Source: Candidatus Enterousia sp. (lineage in GTDB: Bacteria > Pseudomonadota > Alphaproteobacteria > Rs-D84). Taken from it: a stretch of 64,000 bases of DNA. The translations under genes and the position numbers were made by a program. The notes below the pieces were generated by a model. The model saw nothing but the letters and a program-made list of their open reading frames with translations, was not told the DNA's origin and searched no databases. Below are positions 31,907 to 63,527 of the stretch, piece by piece. The stretch spans positions 26,362-90,361 of the forward strand of contig JAZROX010000045.1 in assembly GCA_045648945.1 (NCBI GenBank), in the 5' to 3' direction. Positions within the stretch are counted from its first letter, which is position 1. The number at the start of each line of letters is the position of its first letter.

Positions 31907-32866
31907 TTAATCATTCGGCATATATACCGGCGCATTTCCCATTGTAAAGAATCGATTTGCAACCGTATCGTACATGCCAATTGCATTATCATGCCGCGCC
32001 GGTACATAGTTATGAATCATAACATCGTTTTCATAAACAGTTATATACGCAATATCACCATCAAAAATAGAATGATTGGCATATTGTGTTGAAAAATCGC
32101 CTATAAACCATACGTATGCACTACTTGACAGCGTTCTGGTACCTGTATATTCAATTCCATTTATGGTTCCGTACATATTATCACGTGTTTTGGTGCGGTC
32201 CAATACATCTTCCATTGTGTACCATACTCCTGTAGTTATCGGAATAAGTTTCGATATATTGCCGCCCGCCGGATAATTCGGTACGGTTATTATATGTGGT
32301 GCCCAATAACCGTCGGCGGACACACCAAAAAACATGCCATTATCTGCACCAAAAATCGAGTTATATTTTGTGGTGGACAGGCTGTTAAACCGAAACTTTG
32401 CTTTGACTTTATATGTTTGCAGTGTTGGATACCAACCGTAATCTACTATCGCGTCTTTGGTTGATATGTGTGACAATGCCGTATATCCCGCGGGCATGTT
32501 TTGTTCCACAACACTGTTGATAGACACCAACCAACAATCCGTCGGGTCATTTGGGTTGTATTTTATACACGTGAATTCTGCGTCAATTGCATCCTGAACC
32601 CCGCTGTTAAAGTCACCGGCGGTGACCAAGGCGTCCGTTTGTTCGGCGTATTCGCCGGTCGAATCGTAAATATTTTTTGTGCCGACCGTGCCCGCGGTGC
32701 CGGTGTTGGTCAAAACCTGGGCTACGCCGTCATTCGCCGGAATTGCGTCTTGCTTTTGTGCGACCGCGGTGTCAACGAATGCCTTGGACGTCGCAACATT
32801 TTCGCCCGCCGCAAACACGTCACCAGCCATAAACCCACAAACCAAAAACGTTAAAATTTTTTTCAT
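31907..32866 (-). CDS. Secreted paralog-family protein A (conserved ~100-aa N-module plus beta-rich C-terminal domain)
   Basis: Signal peptide MKKILTFLVCGFMAGDVFA. N-module GENVATSKAFVD...KQDAIPA...VLTNTGTAGTVGTKNIYDS...CIKYNPNDPTDCWL is shared with the ORFs at 54289, 60209 and 60935. Confidence 0.6.
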   Translation of the reverse strand: MKKILTFLVCGFMAGDVFAAGENVATSKAFVDTAVAQKQDAIPANDGVAQVLTNTGTAGTVGTKNIYDSTGEYAEQTDALVTAGDFNSGVQDAIDAEFTCIKYNPNDPTDCWLVSINSVVEQNMPAGYTALSHISTKDAIVDYGWYPTLQTYKVKAKFRFNSLSTTKYNSIFGADNGMFFGVSADGYWAPHIITVPNYPAGGNISKLIPITTGVWYTMEDVLDRTKTRDNMYGTINGIEYTGTRTLSSSAYVWFIGDFSTQYANHSIFDGDIAYITVYENDVMIHNYVPARHDNAIGMYDTVANRFFTMGNAPVYMPND

Positions 32867-33201
32867 AATTTGCTTCCTTTGATTGAACAAAAATAACCGC
32901 CAAGAATCCTGACGGTCGGGGTGTTAGCAAATCACTCATGTTATTGATTCTGATGACCTTTACATATACGTCACCAGCACCCCGACATACGGGGGACTTT
33001 AATATTGCGGTGCAAAAACACGAAATTCGCAATGGATTACGATGCTTTGCACCGAACATGAGCGGGTCTGCTACGACCCCGAACACAGATTTCCATCTGG
33101 TTCAAGCGCATTGTATTAGAAAAAAATTTTTATGGCAAGTGCAAATTAGATTTTTATTTGCGTTTTGAAAAAAAATACTATATGATGGTGCCACGGTTCC
33201 A

Positions 33202-33295
33202 GGATGGTTGGCAGAGCGGTTGAATGCATCCGACTTGAAATCGGACAAGGTATGAAATAAGACCTTCGGGGGTTCAAATCCCTCACCATCCGCCA
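33202..33295 (+). tRNA. tRNA-Ser (anticodon UGA) with long variable arm
   Basis: Acceptor GGATGGT/ACCATCC, anticodon stem CCGA/TCGG with loop CTTGAAA, long extra arm, T-loop GGTTCAAATCC, discriminator G and encoded CCA. Confidence 0.85.
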
Positions 33296-54288: not shown

Positions 54289-55140
54289 TTAATTTACACT
54301 TGGTATAAAATTATTCGGATTATAATAAGGAAAGAAAGTTGTATATGTGGTCACGCCGTCTTCGACAAACATTGGCGCAAAACTAAATCCACTCATATCA
54401 GTATTTGCATCAATGTAAATACGGACATATTTGACAATATAACCCGTTTGGTTGACATAAGTAAAAGTTTGTCGGTTTTCCTTTGTAAAACGCCAACAAT
54501 CAATAAAACCTTTATTTGGGGTAAGCCATGCGAGCGAAACCGTATTCCCGAACCCTCGGCCGCAATTGCCGTCACTAAACCTTTTGTTGTTCCACAAATA
54601 CATCCCGCCCCTACCGCCATAATACACAGATGTTGGAAACTGGTAATCTCTGGTCAATTCAAATTCAAAATAAGTATCTGCGGTGGCAACACCATTGAAC
54701 GAATACATCCCGTTATTTACCGTAACCGTGACACCATTAAGTGTTTTAGTTTGGTTTTCTGGTGCGGGCAGTCGATTTGGACTCGCACTGCGTATTTGTA
54801 CCAGCCAACAATCCGTCGAATCGTTTGGATTCCATGCAATACATTCAAATTCAGTGTCTATGGCGTTTTGCACGGCGGTGTTAAAGTCCCCGGCCGTCAC
54901 CAATGCGTCTGTTTGTGCGGAATACGATGCGTTCGAATCATAAATGTTTTTTGTGCCAACCGCACCGGGTGTTCCGGTGTTTGTCAGTACCTGGGGCGCG
55001 CCATTGTTTGCCGGAATTATGTTTTGTTTTTGTGCCACGCCCGCATCAACAAAGGCCTTGGATGTTGCGACATTTTCACCCGTCGCAAATGCCGCACCAC
55101 ACATTACCGAACAAACAAAAAATGTTAAAAGTTTTCTCAT
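54289..55140 (-). CDS. Secreted paralog-family protein B
   Basis: N-module ~80% identical to protein A (GENVATSKAFVDAGVAQKQNIIPANNGAPQVLTNTGTPGAVGTKNIYDS...CIAWNPNDSTDCWLV) with a divergent C-terminal domain. 283 aa. Confidence 0.6.
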   Translation of the reverse strand: MRKLLTFFVCSVMCGAAFATGENVATSKAFVDAGVAQKQNIIPANNGAPQVLTNTGTPGAVGTKNIYDSNASYSAQTDALVTAGDFNTAVQNAIDTEFECIAWNPNDSTDCWLVQIRSASPNRLPAPENQTKTLNGVTVTVNNGMYSFNGVATADTYFEFELTRDYQFPTSVYYGGRGGMYLWNNKRFSDGNCGRGFGNTVSLAWLTPNKGFIDCWRFTKENRQTFTYVNQTGYIVKYVRIYIDANTDMSGFSFAPMFVEDGVTTYTTFFPYYNPNNFIPSVN

Positions 55141-55469
55141 AATCCCGCCTCCTTGGTGATAATCAAAAAAACCACTGAAGCAACAGTGGTTGGAGGTTCA
55201 AGACAATTTATGTGCAAATTGTGTGCTTATTTTATCGGGAAGCCCGATATTATTCACAACCCTCCAACCCAACGGTTGGAGATTTTTACGTCATAAAGAC
55301 GGCACATAAACACGGGTCTTGACACCCCACCGATGGAACACCCATCGACGTATGAAATTTACCAAGATTTCAAATTTGTTGCAAGACTTATTTGCGCGTT
55401 CGTGAAATTAATTTTGGAATTTTTGCGCGGGACCTTGAATTTGCGGGTTTTGCCGGTTATAATTGCGTT

Positions 55470-57726: not shown

Positions 57727-57792
57727 AGATTATCTTTTGTTTGGTAAAATAATACTGTTGAAACATTGAAAAAAAATAGGTATTTTATCCAT

Positions 57793-59994
57793 ATGTTTAA
57801 ATCGGGAACAATTGTAAAAGTTTTATTGCCAAACGTTGTAAATCGTGGTTACGATTATCGGTTGAATACGGATGCGGATTTGGGTGCCTTTGTTCGTGTT
57901 ACATTGATGAACCGCCCGTATATTGGTGTGATTTATGGCGTGGGTGATGGTGCGGTTGCGCCCGACAAGATTAAAGATGTGTCCATGGTTTTTCCGTGGA
58001 AACTTTCGGTTACCGATTTACAGTGGATTCAAAAAATGTCTGAATGGACATTGATGGCGCCGGGTGCGGTGCTGCGTTTGATTATAAATGTTCCAGATGC
58101 TTTTTCTGAACCCCGGGTCGAACAATTATATTCTTATAACTTTGATGCGCCGAAATCTAAAATGACTGAAAGTCGCCAAATGGTTTTGGACGCGTTCGAA
58201 TTAAACGATAACGAACCAATGTCGGGACCCGATATTCAATCTATTGCGCGCGTGGGGCCGTCGGTTGTAAAAACCATGATTGCACGCGGCATGCTTATCC
58301 CGACCTTGTCGCGCCCGATTGATAAATCATTTGCATATCAATACCACGATATGGGCAATATAGAACTAAACCCGGAACAACGCGCCGCCGCCGATAAAAT
58401 CGGCCACGATATAGAAAACGGTGGCTTTTCGGTGAACCTGGTTGACGGCATAACGGGCAGTGGTAAAACCCAGGTTTATTTTGATTCCGTATGGCGCGCG
58501 TACAGTGCGGGTAAATCTGTATTGTTGATGATGCCGGAAATTGCGCTGACCACCCAGTTTATAAAAAGATTCGAATCCCGTTTTGGTGCGCCACCCGTTG
58601 TATGGCACAGTAATTTAACCGCGGCGCGACGGCGCGATATATGGCGCGGTGTTATGCAGGGAAAAATCAAAATTGTTGTTGGTACGCGCAGCGCGCTGTT
58701 CCTGCCGTGGCAAGATTTGGGTTTGATTGTTGTTGATGAAGAGCATGATTCTTCATATAAACAGGAAGATATGGGAAATTACCATGGTCGCGATATGGCG
58801 ATTCTGCGTGCAAAGTTGGCGGGGTTCCCGGTGGTGTTGGCGTCCGCAACCCCGTCAGAAGAAACAATGCATAATATCGAAATAGGGCGCTATGGCCACT
58901 TGGTTTTGCGGTCGCGGTATGGTGGTGCCGAATTGCCAACAATCGAAACCATAGATATGCGTGAACATCGGCCCGACGAATATGATGTGAACGATGAAAA
59001 CGAAGATAAACGTGCCGGGGCGCTATCGCCAATATTATGTGATGCGATTAAAAACACGTTGGATAATCATCAACAGATTATGTTGTTTATAAATCGTCGC
59101 GGCTTTGCGCCAATTGTTCAGTGTAAAAAATGCGGTTGGGTTGCAACATGTGGCGATTGTTCGGTGGGCATGACATATCACAAAAGAATCGGAAAATTAT
59201 TGTGCCACATGTGTGGGCGCACTATGAGTATGCCGAATGCGTGCCCCGATTGCGGGGGGGCGATTTCTATGCGTGGTGCGGGATTGGAAAAGATAGAAGA
59301 AGAGGTTAAATCGCGTTTTCCAAACGCGCGCACCGCGATTGTATCCAGTGACACAATGATGTCGCGCGGCGCGTTGGAACGTCTGGTTGCAAAAATGGAA
59401 TCCGGCGAATTGGATATAATAATCGGAACACAAATCTTGGCCAAGGGACACCATTTTCCGCACCTTACTTTGGTTGGGGTCGTGGATGCCGACATGGGTT
59501 TGTTCGGGACGGATTTTCGCAGTCCCGAACACACATTTCAACAATTATTCCAGGTTGCCGGTCGCGCGGGTCGTGGTGCGATGCCGGGACGTGTTTTATT
59601 ACAGACATATCAACCGACGCATCCGGTGTTGACCGCAATATGTGCCGGAAATCGTGACGAATTTTTACGCACAGATATGGATGCGCGCCGGGCCGCAAAA
59701 ATGCCGCCGTTTGGGCAATTGATTGCGGTGATTGTCGAATGCAAAAAAGAATCGGTATTAAAAAATTTCTGTGATGATTTGGTGCGCGCAATGCCGAACG
59801 TAAATGGTGCACGAATAATGGGACCGGTTATGGCGCAAATATACGTAGCGCGGAATTGGTATCGTATGCGGTTTTTGATATCGGGTGATGCGCGTGCACA
59901 TTTGCAACCATTGGTAACATTGTGGTTGTCGCGCGTAAGCGTGCCCGCAAACGTCCGCGTCAAAATTGACGTTAACCCAATGAATTTTATGTAA
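57793..59994 (+). CDS. priA: Primosomal protein N' (replication restart helicase)
   Basis: Walker A GITGSGKTQVYF, DEEH box VVDEEHD, and Cys-rich Zn-binding region CKKCGW...CGDC...CHMCG...CPDCGG. Terminator at 60003-60032. Confidence 0.9.
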   Translation: MFKSGTIVKVLLPNVVNRGYDYRLNTDADLGAFVRVTLMNRPYIGVIYGVGDGAVAPDKIKDVSMVFPWKLSVTDLQWIQKMSEWTLMAPGAVLRLIINVPDAFSEPRVEQLYSYNFDAPKSKMTESRQMVLDAFELNDNEPMSGPDIQSIARVGPSVVKTMIARGMLIPTLSRPIDKSFAYQYHDMGNIELNPEQRAAADKIGHDIENGGFSVNLVDGITGSGKTQVYFDSVWRAYSAGKSVLLMMPEIALTTQFIKRFESRFGAPPVVWHSNLTAARRRDIWRGVMQGKIKIVVGTRSALFLPWQDLGLIVVDEEHDSSYKQEDMGNYHGRDMAILRAKLAGFPVVLASATPSEETMHNIEIGRYGHLVLRSRYGGAELPTIETIDMREHRPDEYDVNDENEDKRAGALSPILCDAIKNTLDNHQQIMLFINRRGFAPIVQCKKCGWVATCGDCSVGMTYHKRIGKLLCHMCGRTMSMPNACPDCGGAISMRGAGLEKIEEEVKSRFPNARTAIVSSDTMMSRGALERLVAKMESGELDIIIGTQILAKGHHFPHLTLVGVVDADMGLFGTDFRSPEHTFQQLFQVAGRAGRGAMPGRVLLQTYQPTHPVLTAICAGNRDEFLRTDMDARRAAKMPPFGQLIAVIVECKKESVLKNFCDDLVRAMPNVNGARIMGPVMAQIYVARNWYRMRFLISGDARAHLQPLVTLWLSRVSVPANVRVKIDVNPMNFM

Positions 59995-60106
59995 ATTGCG
60001 ATATCGATTCGTTTTTCGAATCGGTTTTTTTTGCCGATTCGGTGGCGATTTTGGCCTGGTTGACAAATATTTTATTATGAAAGCGCGCTAAGTCATTGAT
60101 ATTTCG

Positions 60107-60125
60107 TTTTTTTTTTTTTTTTTTT
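60107..60125. repeat. Homopolymeric T19 tract (followed by gT7) about 85 bp upstream of paralog-family gene C
   Basis: Read directly in sequence: 19 consecutive T. Confidence 0.9.
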
Positions 60126-60208
60126 GTTTTTTTGCCTTTGACTCGCCGCCGCGATTTTTTCTAAACTTTTAATCAGGGAATGAATAAGCAACAAAGGAGA
60201 AAAATCCC

Positions 60209-60619
60209 ATGAAGAAATCCAAAAATATAATAATTTGTGGCGCAATTGCATCTGTGTGCACGGTTGGTGCATTTGCCGAAAACGAAAACATCGTGACGTC
60301 CAAGGGATATGTGGACAGTGCGGTCGGCACAAAACAAAATACAATACCTGCGGCAGAAACAAACAGCGCCACCCCGGGGACCAGTGTAGTTATGTACACC
60401 GGCACGGCGGGAACAATTGGCGAACGCGCTATATACGACAGTACTACATATACATCCAATGATGCAAATAAATTGGTGACGGCGGCATCGTTAAATGGAA
60501 CGGTAAATAACATACCGACAATAACAACATCTAAATTGACATGTTCGAACAGCCCTGATTGTACACTGTGGGATTTGTCTGACCAGACAGTATTGGGGCA
60601 ACAGCAACAAGGGAATTAA
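60209..60619 (+). CDS. Secreted paralog-family protein C (N-module only, 136 aa)
   Basis: Signal peptide plus ENENIVTSKGYVDSAVGTKQNTIPA...YTGTAGTIGERAIYDS...KLTCSNSPDCTLWDL. Terminates right after the shared module. Confidence 0.55.
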   Translation: MKKSKNIIICGAIASVCTVGAFAENENIVTSKGYVDSAVGTKQNTIPAAETNSATPGTSVVMYTGTAGTIGERAIYDSTTYTSNDANKLVTAASLNGTVNNIPTITTSKLTCSNSPDCTLWDLSDQTVLGQQQQGN

Positions 60620-60630
60620 AATGCTGTGCC

Positions 60631-60885
60631 GTCATCCTGAACTTGGTTCAGGATCCCGTCGATGCCGCCTGATACACGTCATCCCGCCGAAGGGCGGGAC
60701 CCAGTGCGAACGAAGTGAGCACTTGCGTCGCAGACAGTACATGTGTGTCACGCGCATTGCGCGTTCCACATTTCCTGCGGAGCAGTCAACCTTTGCCTAA
60801 GGCTTCGGTTGATGGGTACCGCCCTTCGGCGGTATGACGGGACCGCGACGGAAATGAAGAGATCCTGAAACAAGTTCAGGATGAC
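60631..60885. mobile_element. 255-bp palindromic MITE-like element with 25-bp terminal inverted repeats GTCATCCTGAACTTGGTTCAGGATC / GATCCTGAAACAAGTTCAGGATGAC
   Basis: Nested internal inverted repeats cccgccgaagggcggg / ccgcccttcggcgg. Related fragments occur at about 54190-54235 and 28600-28660. Confidence 0.6.
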
Positions 60886-60934
60886 GTGCAAAAAAGGATG
60901 ACGAAAAAACAATAAACAAAAAAAGGAGAAAGAT

Positions 60935-61864
60935 ATGAAACGAATATTAGCGGGAACGGTGTTGATGGTGATGGCATTACCGTGCTATGGCGCGGGTGAA
61001 AACATACCAACATCGCGTGCGTATGTTGATTCTGCATTAAGCCTGAAACAGGCGAAGTTCCCTGCGGCGAATTCTGGTTTGGGTTCGGGAACCAGTGTTT
61101 TAACATATACCGCGACCAGTGGTACAATTGGTGAACGTGCATTATATACGGACGCGTCCAGTTACGATGCATCGAATGATGCAGATAAATTGATAACTGC
61201 GTCGGCATTAAACGGTGCGGTGACATCATTACAGACAGATACAACAACGAAATTGGTATGTGCGAACCCGGGGACATGCGACCTGTGGAATATTGTTGAC
61301 CAAACGGCCTATGCCGGCGGCAGCAGTTCCGGCGGTGGAACGACGTTGGAACAATGCGTTTTTAGTGGTTTATCGGATTATATGCCTGCACAAGAATATT
61401 ATCGTGACAGCACGTGTTCAAAATTGCTAAACGGTAATTCTGTTGGAAATAGCATTTGCAGTGCAGATGTATTCAATTCATTGTCATACGGTGAATGGGC
61501 GGTTCAATTGGTGGACAAAGAAACAGAAAATACAACCGTTTATGTGCAAGGGACCAGTACTTGTAGTAGCGTAGAGCCGTCCGCCGTGAGTCAGTGGGTG
61601 CTATCGTTCGATCAGAGTCAGCTTCAGCAAGATTATGCATTAAATCTATCCAATGCTCCAACATCCAGTCTAGTAGGTTCGTATTGTCATTGTAAAATTA
61701 CAAATGTGATTGGTACGGGGTGTACCGCACCGTGGGTTTCTTATGATTATGAAGCGTATTACTCAGCAGTCGATTGTGCCGGCAACTGTGCAAATGATTG
61801 TGCGTATCAAGTCTATAACAAGATTAACAACGGCGAAAGTTTGTCCCCGTATCAATATGACTAG
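60935..61864 (+). CDS. Secreted paralog-family protein D (N-module plus Cys-rich C-terminal domain)
   Basis: GENIPTSRAYVDSALSLKQAKFPA...YTATSGTIGERALYTD...KLVCANPGTCDLWNI. The C-terminal 200 aa are unique, with 12 Cys. 309 aa. Confidence 0.6.
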   Translation: MKRILAGTVLMVMALPCYGAGENIPTSRAYVDSALSLKQAKFPAANSGLGSGTSVLTYTATSGTIGERALYTDASSYDASNDADKLITASALNGAVTSLQTDTTTKLVCANPGTCDLWNIVDQTAYAGGSSSGGGTTLEQCVFSGLSDYMPAQEYYRDSTCSKLLNGNSVGNSICSADVFNSLSYGEWAVQLVDKETENTTVYVQGTSTCSSVEPSAVSQWVLSFDQSQLQQDYALNLSNAPTSSLVGSYCHCKITNVIGTGCTAPWVSYDYEAYYSAVDCAGNCANDCAYQVYNKINNGESLSPYQYD

Positions 61865-61926: not shown

Positions 61927-62886
61927 TTACACCACCTCGGTCACGGCGCGTAACGACCCATCGCGCGAAAGTTGTACAACACGAATCTTTTTCTTCATTT
62001 CTTCTATCAATTCGCCACGGTCATATGCCGGTTGAGTATGTAAAATGCGATCTGCAAATGCGGCATACGCGGCATCGGCACTTTCGGCATGAATCGTTGT
62101 ATAGAAATGTTCGTGACCCGTCCCCAGCATTTCCCACATAACCGCCGCATTATCCGTTGATATTTCACCGCCGATTATAACATCCGGCGTCATACGCACA
62201 ACCAAATCCAACAATCGTGCATAGTTAAATTCATTTGTCTGTTCGGTGCGCGACAGTACAAAGTGCACGCGGTTTTTTTGCGGAACGCGGACCTCGCGCG
62301 CGTCTTCAACCGTAATCACGCGACTGTTTTGGTCAATCAGTGTCAACATGTGATTAAGAAAAGTAGTTTTTCCGGTCGCGGTTGCACCACTTATAAGAAT
62401 GGGGCTGCCGTCGTTTATCGCGCTCATCAACCGGTCGTATGGATCGTCGGGACGATTCGTTTCGCGTGGTTTAACCTTCATCAATTTTTCCCCGCGTTTC
62501 AAATGATAGTTTTCAAAAGATGTGTCGGTCACGCCCTCGCCACGAATATTTAACGCCACGCCGCCCGTTACATCGCGTTCGTCATATTGAACATTTGGGC
62601 CGGCAATCGCACTGAACCGATGATTCCCCGGCAATGTTGCATAAACAACCGGCATTCCATGAATCGGGTCAAACGGCCGTTCATATATATTTGCGATGGT
62701 ATGAATCAAATCCACCAAGTATTGTTTGGTAAGTGTCGGCGCATCATACGCAACCCACGGCACGCGTGCACCATGCAGACGCATCCAAACCTCGCCTTCG
62801 TGGTTTATTGCGATTTCTTCCACAAAAGACGGTCGGTAAAATTCCGACAATGGTTTCAGTAAAGATTCCAGTACAACATTTGTCAT
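61927..62886 (-). CDS. VirB11/TrbB-family type IV secretion ATPase (orphan)
   Basis: Walker A GATATGKTT, VirB11-type His box, and GGEISTDNAAVMWEMLGTGH. 319 aa. Confidence 0.7.
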   Translation of the reverse strand: MTNVVLESLLKPLSEFYRPSFVEEIAINHEGEVWMRLHGARVPWVAYDAPTLTKQYLVDLIHTIANIYERPFDPIHGMPVVYATLPGNHRFSAIAGPNVQYDERDVTGGVALNIRGEGVTDTSFENYHLKRGEKLMKVKPRETNRPDDPYDRLMSAINDGSPILISGATATGKTTFLNHMLTLIDQNSRVITVEDAREVRVPQKNRVHFVLSRTEQTNEFNYARLLDLVVRMTPDVIIGGEISTDNAAVMWEMLGTGHEHFYTTIHAESADAAYAAFADRILHTQPAYDRGELIEEMKKKIRVVQLSRDGSLRAVTEVV

Positions 62887-62966: not shown

Positions 62967-63527
62967 ATGAAGAAAATATTTTTAACAATCTTTTGTTTAA
63001 CCTTGGCCCTGGCGGGGTGCAGCCACGATGACCGGCCGTACAATGCCGAAGATTTTGCAAACGGTGGTGATGACGCACCATATTATAATGAACGGACCAG
63101 TACGTTTATGCAGGCCGATAATGACTATGCCGGAATTGATTCTTATCGTCCAAAATCCGATTTAGAAAAGGAAGAAATAAATAAACGTTGGACAACTTCG
63201 CGTATGGAAACCCGTTGGCAGGAATACAAGGGAACGATGATTCGGGTTCAAATACTTTTGGGAAATACCGATTTGCGTGAAATGCGCCTGCGTTTGATAC
63301 AAAATGCCGATGGTATGGATATTGATGGCGATATTCGCACCGTTTTGGGCAAGGTTGCAGATTATGAAATGAAACGTGTGTGTGGCCGTAATGCCGATAG
63401 CATTGTTTTGGTTTATGATAAACCTTCGTTTGAAACAATGCGGCCATCACCGTTCTTTGATTATAGGATAGAGGCCGATGGCGCGACAATGCGCGAATAC
63501 GGTTTCCGTTGCGTTTACAACAAATAA
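62967..63527 (+). CDS. Hypothetical lipoprotein
   Basis: Lipobox LALAGC after the signal peptide. 186 aa. Confidence 0.5.
   Translation: MKKIFLTIFCLTLALAGCSHDDRPYNAEDFANGGDDAPYYNERTSTFMQADNDYAGIDSYRPKSDLEKEEINKRWTTSRMETRWQEYKGTMIRVQILLGNTDLREMRLRLIQNADGMDIDGDIRTVLGKVADYEMKRVCGRNADSIVLVYDKPSFETMRPSPFFDYRIEADGATMREYGFRCVYNK

Follow-up and report, generated by a model that had tools for sequence, protein, structure and literature searches.

A promoter-proximal poly-T tract in Candidatus Enterousia as a candidate length-tuned element of a secreted-protein gene family

A run of 19 thymines (T19) in Candidatus Enterousia DNA lies next to the core promoter of a small secreted-protein-like gene, here called gene C, and forms part of a promoter module that recurs, with T runs of other lengths, in front of homologous genes in related gut bacteria. 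We consider it somewhat probable that this slippage-prone tract tunes transcription like the rheostat of the Helicobacter pylori sabA promoter, rather than acting as an ON/OFF switch of promoter spacing. Judged by its sequence features (the length of the repeat, its place in the promoter and the polymorphism seen at homologous loci), the tract is a candidate contingency-locus element of the sabA type. Enterousia and its order, Rs-D84, are described as host-associated inhabitants of the gut whose genomes stay below about 1 Mb and encode many hypothetical membrane proteins (PMC12306168).

The T19 tract and its promoter module

Direct reading and a homopolymer scan of the window (the whole 64-kb stretch of DNA that was analysed) place T19 at 60107-60125, followed by a single G (60126) and T7 (60127-60133), just as the first-pass annotation had described, with GCCT coming next; the T-rich tract T19-G-T7 spans 27 nt in total. 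T19 is by far the longest homopolymer of the window (the runner-up is a T10 at 139-148 and all others are of 8 nt or less), and from the base composition about 6e-6 T runs of at least 19 nt would be expected. It thus exceeds the homopolymer length of about 8-9 nt from which simple-sequence contingency loci are reckoned. The distance to the start codon, earlier put at about 85 bp, is 83 nt from the end of T19 to the ATG of the open reading frame at 60209-60619 (+, 136 aa). The features of the region are:

57766-59994, + strand: priA, by its Pfam PriA domains
60003-60035, + strand: terminator-like hairpin and T8 after priA, with a 9-pair stem and a T-rich tail
60058-60106, + strand: distal conserved block (ggTTGACAA ... 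ctaagtcattgatatttcg), from the alignment and the raw upstream sequences
60107-60125, + strand: T19 homopolymer, predicted to span about -67 to -49 if transcription starts where inferred
60126-60133, + strand: G interruption and then T7, about -48 to -41, with GCCT and the -35 hexamer following
60138-60143, + strand: predicted -35 hexamer TTGACT, from a consensus scan, with TTG conserved at 90% or more in 12 aligned regions
60162-60167, + strand: predicted -10 hexamer TAAACT, preceded by a GC-rich spacer of 18 nt (CGCCGCCGCGATTTTTTC), from the consensus scan and the alignment
60194-60199, + strand: ribosome-binding site AAGGAG, 9 nt 5' of the ATG, by direct reading
60209-60619, + strand: gene C, 136 aa with a signal-peptide-like N-terminus, from the open reading frame, tblastn and homolog searches

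The module was defined from an alignment of 12 promoter regions and a pattern table of 21 loci (the window and 20 homologous contigs), the tracts being sought by a scan for T runs in the 400 nt before each family gene of the retrieved loci. All 21 loci read T(n), 4-5 nt, TTGNNN, 17-18 nt, TANNNT, 34-41 nt and ATG, with two exceptions on the first interval: between tract and -35 there are 12 nt in the window (G, T7 and GCCT) and likewise 12 in L011, whose tract is interrupted like that of the window (T8-AC-T6). The window version is T19-G-T7-GCCT-TTGACT-18-TAAACT-41-ATG, and its letters run gtcattgatatttcg-T19-g-T7-gcct-TTGACT-cgccgccgcgattttttc-TAAACT. In the alignment, the T, the A and the last T of the -10 hexamer are invariant. 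Such conservation among relatives lends support to the promoter predicted by the consensus scan, and the earlier placing of T19 in the promoter region of a gene from a multi-copy secreted-protein family is likewise supported. The spacer of the relatives is also GC-rich and 17-18 nt long (cgccaccccgaattttga); according to the pattern table, most of them have a TATAAT -10 with a TG upstream, and most combine weak -35 hexamers (TTGTGT, TTGCGT) with a suboptimal 18-nt spacer.

An inferred transcription start near 60174 would put the T-rich tract at about -67 to -41, the position of an UP element. The tract adjoins the -35 hexamer in the relatives, with 4-5 nt between them, and in the window, where T7 and GCCT lead up to TTGACT and T19 itself ends 12 nt 5' of the predicted hexamer, within the promoter region. 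On its far side stands the distal conserved block, which may be UP-like or serve a regulator: in several relatives it contains the palindrome TTGACAA-N11/12-TTGTCAA, of which the window keeps the left half only. The block is not an A-box array, and a manual count gave about 66-78 nt from TTGACAA to the -35 hexamer, without clear helical periodicity. Because these distances are not phased, the idea that tract lengths follow 10-nt helical steps (total lengths of about 7, 17 and 27 nt) was dropped.

Tract length at homologous loci

Homologous tracts of T6 to T20 occupy the equivalent site in 20 other loci. Among the paralogs and orthologs, all from Candidatus Enterousia-like reduced-genome gut Alphaproteobacteria, n takes the values 6, 7, 7, 8, 12, 16, 17, 18, 19 and 20; at an equal distance from the start codon there are long runs in L006 (T12), L050 (T18) and L053 (T17) and short ones of T6-T8 in L008, L010, L011 and L022. 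Two cassettes of one sample (ERZ28633805) differ in length, with T18 in L056 and T17 in L180.

In all three homologous loci for which several assemblies are at hand, a 1-nt change of the tract is the sole or nearly sole difference over 1.3-3.4 kb; such differences in runs of more than 15 nt may be artefacts of library PCR, sequencing slippage or assembler choice, these being short-read Illumina metagenome assemblies. The recO-side locus (P0039 or P0038) has T18 in L054, L055, L056 and L181 and T17 in L057, with flanks 100% identical over at least 689+635 nt and, for L181, one mismatch in 3,450 nt. The tsf-side locus (P0033) has T19 in L058, L060 and L061 and T20 in L059, with one other mismatch in about 3.4 kb. 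For a second recO-side lineage (P0049), T17 in L182 stands against T16 in L183, and blastn aligned 2,643 nt with no mismatches and a single gap, which is the tract itself.

The earlier description of the tract as slippage-prone therefore holds for the homologous tracts in relatives, which are length-polymorphic as slipped-strand mispairing predicts; for the window, known from one assembly, variability would be extrapolated from the homologs. No second assembly of the priA-gene C locus was found: exact-protein look-ups of gene C, priA, the VirB11-like ATPase and P0001 returned no contigs, and the left flank specific to the window had 0 matches in a metagenome scan. With a generic left-flank pattern the scan returned 117 stretches, of which one was genuine (the JGI rumen-type contig L122, with T17) and the others were chance matches.

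Long homopolymers are rare in this group outside the module. In 352,670 nt of relatives' DNA there are six of at least 10 nt, and those of at least 12 nt (three of three) are the promoter tract. Pure T16-T20 tracts are retained between loci whose DNA identity is only about 81-84%, which suggests selection for length.

The gene C family, its surroundings and a second type of 5' region

The product of gene C opens, as read by eye, with MKKSK, a hydrophobic stretch and AFA|EN. It has no match in Pfam, PHROGs or NCBIfam and only insignificant antibody matches in the PDB, and an AlphaFold2 model from a 30-sequence alignment is unreliable (pLDDT 51.5). Metagenomes from ENA, Logan, NCBI and JGI supplied 95 homologs; most have about 130-150 aa, the largest about 220 aa, and the handful with a name read 'MAG: Alphaproteobacteria bacterium'. 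The GTDB representative genomes yielded 51 loci of the family, with up to about 8 copies per genome, in MAGs from rumen or gut that bear the labels Candidatus Enterousia, uncultured proteobacterium (RUG/RGIG) or Alphaproteobacteria. Conservation within the family is good in the mature part, which contains two invariant Cys. Within the window, tblastn identified paralogs at 60935-61864 (+), 54289-55140 (-) and 31907-32890 (-), and no poly-T was found upstream of these three. The first-pass annotation had spoken of a surface-protein family: the paralogs and the signal-peptide-like N-terminus agree with this, and the surface location itself stays putative.

Gene C is the small member of a conserved small-plus-long two-gene cassette, the second gene of which is here gene D; in relatives, 22-148 nt separate the two. 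In the window an insertion lies between them:

60630-60886, no strand assigned: MITE-like palindromic insertion of 257 nt between gene C and gene D, with 74-nt arms that are 80% complementary
60935-61864, + strand: gene D, a paralog of 309 aa that shares homology with gene C in its N-terminal domain, from tblastn

The insertion may uncouple gene D from the gene C promoter. Gene C has a close counterpart behind plsX in other samples (L001 1597-2001, L002 219-623). The product of that gene, P0002, shows 97% identity to gene C in the mature part; it has a different signal peptide, and its gene carries a structured-leader 5' region with no T tract. Part of the MITE-like element (gggcgggacccag.gcgaacgaagtgagcacttgcgtcgcagac) also follows this counterpart, there with another inner palindrome. 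P0024, a member of the leader class, occurs behind two different leader variants in different genomic contexts. The patterns of gene C against P0002 and P0024 point to mosaic exchange or gene conversion of cassettes between regulatory modules. Two relatives were discarded as informants on tract variation: P0024, as it belongs to the leader class, and P0007, whose signal peptide is nearest to that of gene C and whose 5' region is unrelated and carries a G8 run (cccgccGGGGGGGGctag; L179, about 2930-2945, 63 nt 5' of the P0007 gene). This G8 run may be another slippage-prone promoter repeat.

The gene C/D cassette adjoins a VirB11-like type IV secretion ATPase at 61927-62886 (-), which matched TIGR02788 with E = 2e-45, below the curated cutoff, and beside it, at 62967-63527 (+), is encoded a small protein with a weakly TrsH/TraH-like N-terminus. 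The paralog at 31907-32890, which bears a leader, has a divergent tRNA gene (33202-33292, +; Rfam RF00005, 57 bits) directly upstream.

In a second subset of the family, a leader of about 230 nt replaces the T-tract promoter:

32880-33110, - strand: structured leader of the paralog at 31907-32890, from covariation analysis
Other loci with the leader: L001 1345-1585, L002, L015 3750-3980, L025 3685-3912, L030, L034, L046, L052, L184-L186 and L189

It consists of a multi-helix junction closed by a GGGG/CCCC helix, includes a 17-bp helix rich in compensatory changes and ends, just 5' of the ribosome-binding site, in a terminator-like hairpin with T's. The covariation analysis found 56 pairs, 25 of them with double compensatory changes, and 94.3% of cells paired, where slid controls gave 36-50%; in 500 shuffles the observed values were never attained. 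No Rfam family matched any 5' region of the gene C paralogs, and the leader had no match in Rfam 15; it is a candidate for an undescribed riboswitch-like cis-regulator. The region 5' of the paralog at 54289-55140 (55141-55390, -) is also long and contains hairpins, and a stem resembling a terminator (ccaaccactg...cagtggttttttt) directly precedes the ribosome-binding site; the region is unlike the leader in sequence and had no Rfam match even at E <= 1. The leader loci L184 and L185, otherwise alike in the roughly 260 nt compared upstream of the gene at 1201, differ at the ribosome-binding site just before that gene, where L184 reads aatGGGGGGaat (G6) and L185 aatGGGGGaat (G5).

How the tract may act, and what it would mean

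In the mechanism that we favour, T19 and G-T7 would be the upstream part of a conserved sigma-70-type promoter module driving a cassette of two secreted paralogs, one small and one long, in Candidatus Enterousia and other reduced-genome gut Alphaproteobacteria of the Rs-D84 type. The tract abuts the predicted -35 hexamer, where the alpha subunits of RNA polymerase would be expected to contact UP elements, and separates the core promoter from the conserved distal block. As a long pure homopolymer, it would gain and lose T's by slipped-strand mispairing, and each change of length would shift and rotate the distal block and the T-rich extent relative to the core promoter, so that transcription would be raised or lowered in steps, like a rheostat, and not turned fully on or off. 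The G interruption leaves only the distal T19 highly mutable; slippage would then move only sequence upstream of about -48, which makes a graded effect more likely than an ON/OFF one. More generally, a core promoter downstream of the tract predicts graded, rheostat-like or phasing-dependent modulation, or no effect, and in the window the effect of slippage could be small, given the 12 nt (G-T7-GCCT) between T19 and the -35 hexamer.

The closest precedent is the T tract of the H. pylori sabA promoter, which adjoins the -35 hexamer and whose effect on RNA polymerase binding and multiphasic output was shown experimentally, with variants from T1 to T21 built and tested and T13 as the wild type in strain SMI109 (Aberg et al. 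2014, PMC4081817); such control next to the -35 is documented for sabA and other genes (PMC4081817). Both systems have a poly-T of comparable length directly upstream of the -35 hexamer, variable by slipped-strand mispairing (between strains or clones in sabA, apparently at homologous loci here), and in both the gene behind it codes for a surface or secreted protein and belongs to a multi-gene family; both bacteria are host-associated and have small genomes. They differ in that output was measured in sabA, whereas the likeness drawn here rests on sequence, in that sabA has defined upstream A-box UP-like elements whereas the conserved block here does not consist of A-boxes, in the interruption of the window tract (T19-G-T7), and in the host, an uncultured alphaproteobacterium as opposed to an epsilonproteobacterium. 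If a regulator binds the distal block, nadA of Neisseria meningitidis would be the closer analogue: there, TAAA repeats upstream of the -35 change operator spacing in a control that involves the repressor NadR and IHF (Metruccio et al. 2009, PMC2791445). The repeat has the same place in both, upstream of the -35 and between distal sites and the core promoter, and the distal block (TTGACAA-N11/12-TTGTCAA in relatives) could act as the counterpart of the NadR operator; nadA, however, has a tetranucleotide repeat and not a homopolymer, and its mechanism needs NadR and IHF.

A different class of promoter repeat is represented by the poly-G of N. meningitidis porA, the poly-C of opc, the poly-A of Mycoplasma hyorhinis vlp and the TA repeats of Haemophilus influenzae hif, which lie between -35 and -10 and give near-binary or three-level switching. 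The proposed system shares with them a homopolymer or simple repeat in the promoter that would control multi-copy surface protein genes by slippage, but here the repeat stands outside the -35/-10 spacer. It is on this point that the mechanism advanced in the first-pass annotation, stochastic ON/OFF expression through altered promoter spacing, has to be abandoned. Beyond a long homopolymer near a promoter nothing speaks for such a classical phase-variation switch, and promoter conservation contradicts it: TTGACT (60138-60143), the 18-nt spacer and TAAACT (60162-60167) all lie downstream of the tract, the spacer is fixed at 17-18 nt in the 21 loci, and there is no alternative -10 at a suitable distance downstream for which the tract could serve as spacer. 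As the core promoter is wholly downstream, slippage cannot alter its spacing, and we judge the switch very improbable. Less credible still is that the tract is the T run of an intrinsic terminator or another RNA-level signal of the priA transcript, as a T-rich run 3' of a gene end might suggest, since priA has its own hairpin with T8 at 60003-60035, about 80 nt 5' of T19, which separates it from the gene C promoter module. A terminator tail was rejected on folding as well: no stable hairpin stands immediately 5' of the tract, the 66 nt there folding no better than shuffles (MFE -11.2 against a shuffle mean of -13.8 kcal/mol, z = +0.95). In relatives, moreover, the gene that precedes the module may lie on either strand; recO, for one, is encoded on the opposite strand.

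It might also be held that the length differences are artefacts of assembly or sequencing and the tract a functionless remnant, for example of replication slippage or a mobile-element target site. Homopolymers longer than 15 nt are indeed error-prone in Illumina libraries, and every polymorphism seen is of 1 nt; yet the tract occupies one and the same place in the promoters of many species and paralogs, in data from different assemblers and projects (ENA MEGAHIT k141, scaffolds of other projects, Logan, JGI and NCBI MAGs), read error cannot explain lengths from 6 to 20, and conservation speaks for function, all of which makes this explanation improbable. The more serious rival, to which we give a real but minor chance, is that of a static upstream element, UP-like and made of rigid poly(dA:dT), which would strengthen or insulate a promoter whose -35 is weak and whose spacer measures 18 nt, the length changes being neutral by-products of slippage. 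UP elements of the Escherichia coli rrnB P1 type are A/T-rich, lie at about -40 to -60, are contacted by the RNA polymerase alpha C-terminal domains and raise promoter strength. The T-rich tract has a similar upstream position, and its -41 to -67 fits the UP-element zone, but rrnB P1 has a mixed A/T element of fixed length and not a long hypermutable homopolymer. The weak -35 hexamers and 18-nt spacer of most relatives make a need for upstream activation plausible, and once a tract is longer than about 17 nt, the zone within reach of the alpha C-terminal domains is T-rich whatever the exact length. The lengths of the long class, moreover, cluster narrowly at 16-20, a range that could equally well reflect a static structural requirement. 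Against a static element, module promoters with T6-T8 and T12 exist, so that a long tract is not required, pure runs of 16-20 nt decay fast unless mutability or exact length is selected, and the sabA precedent indicates that length matters at such a position.

The literature searched yielded no description of T-tract regulation in Rs-D84 or Enterousia-like Alphaproteobacteria or in the gene C family. In small-genome host-associated bacteria at large, repeat-based regulation is common. If the length-tuned reading extends to the family as a whole, which we put forward tentatively, Enterousia and Rs-D84 would possess a family-wide contingency system: dispersed two-gene cassettes, each with its own hypermutable T16-T20 abutting the -35 hexamer, would let a variable repertoire of surface or secreted proteins be tuned independently and in combination, while sister cassettes under an undescribed riboswitch-like leader would add a second control logic, sensory beside stochastic.

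Should tract length indeed tune expression, repeat-based stochastic regulation, so far described mainly from pathogens (Helicobacter, Neisseria, Haemophilus, Mycoplasma), would extend to uncultured reduced-genome Alphaproteobacteria of the animal gut, and an unannotated multi-copy secreted family would be marked as probably involved in host or partner interaction. The conserved module provides a sequence-defined marker, by which tract length can be read across metagenomes and compared with metatranscriptomes without cultivation.
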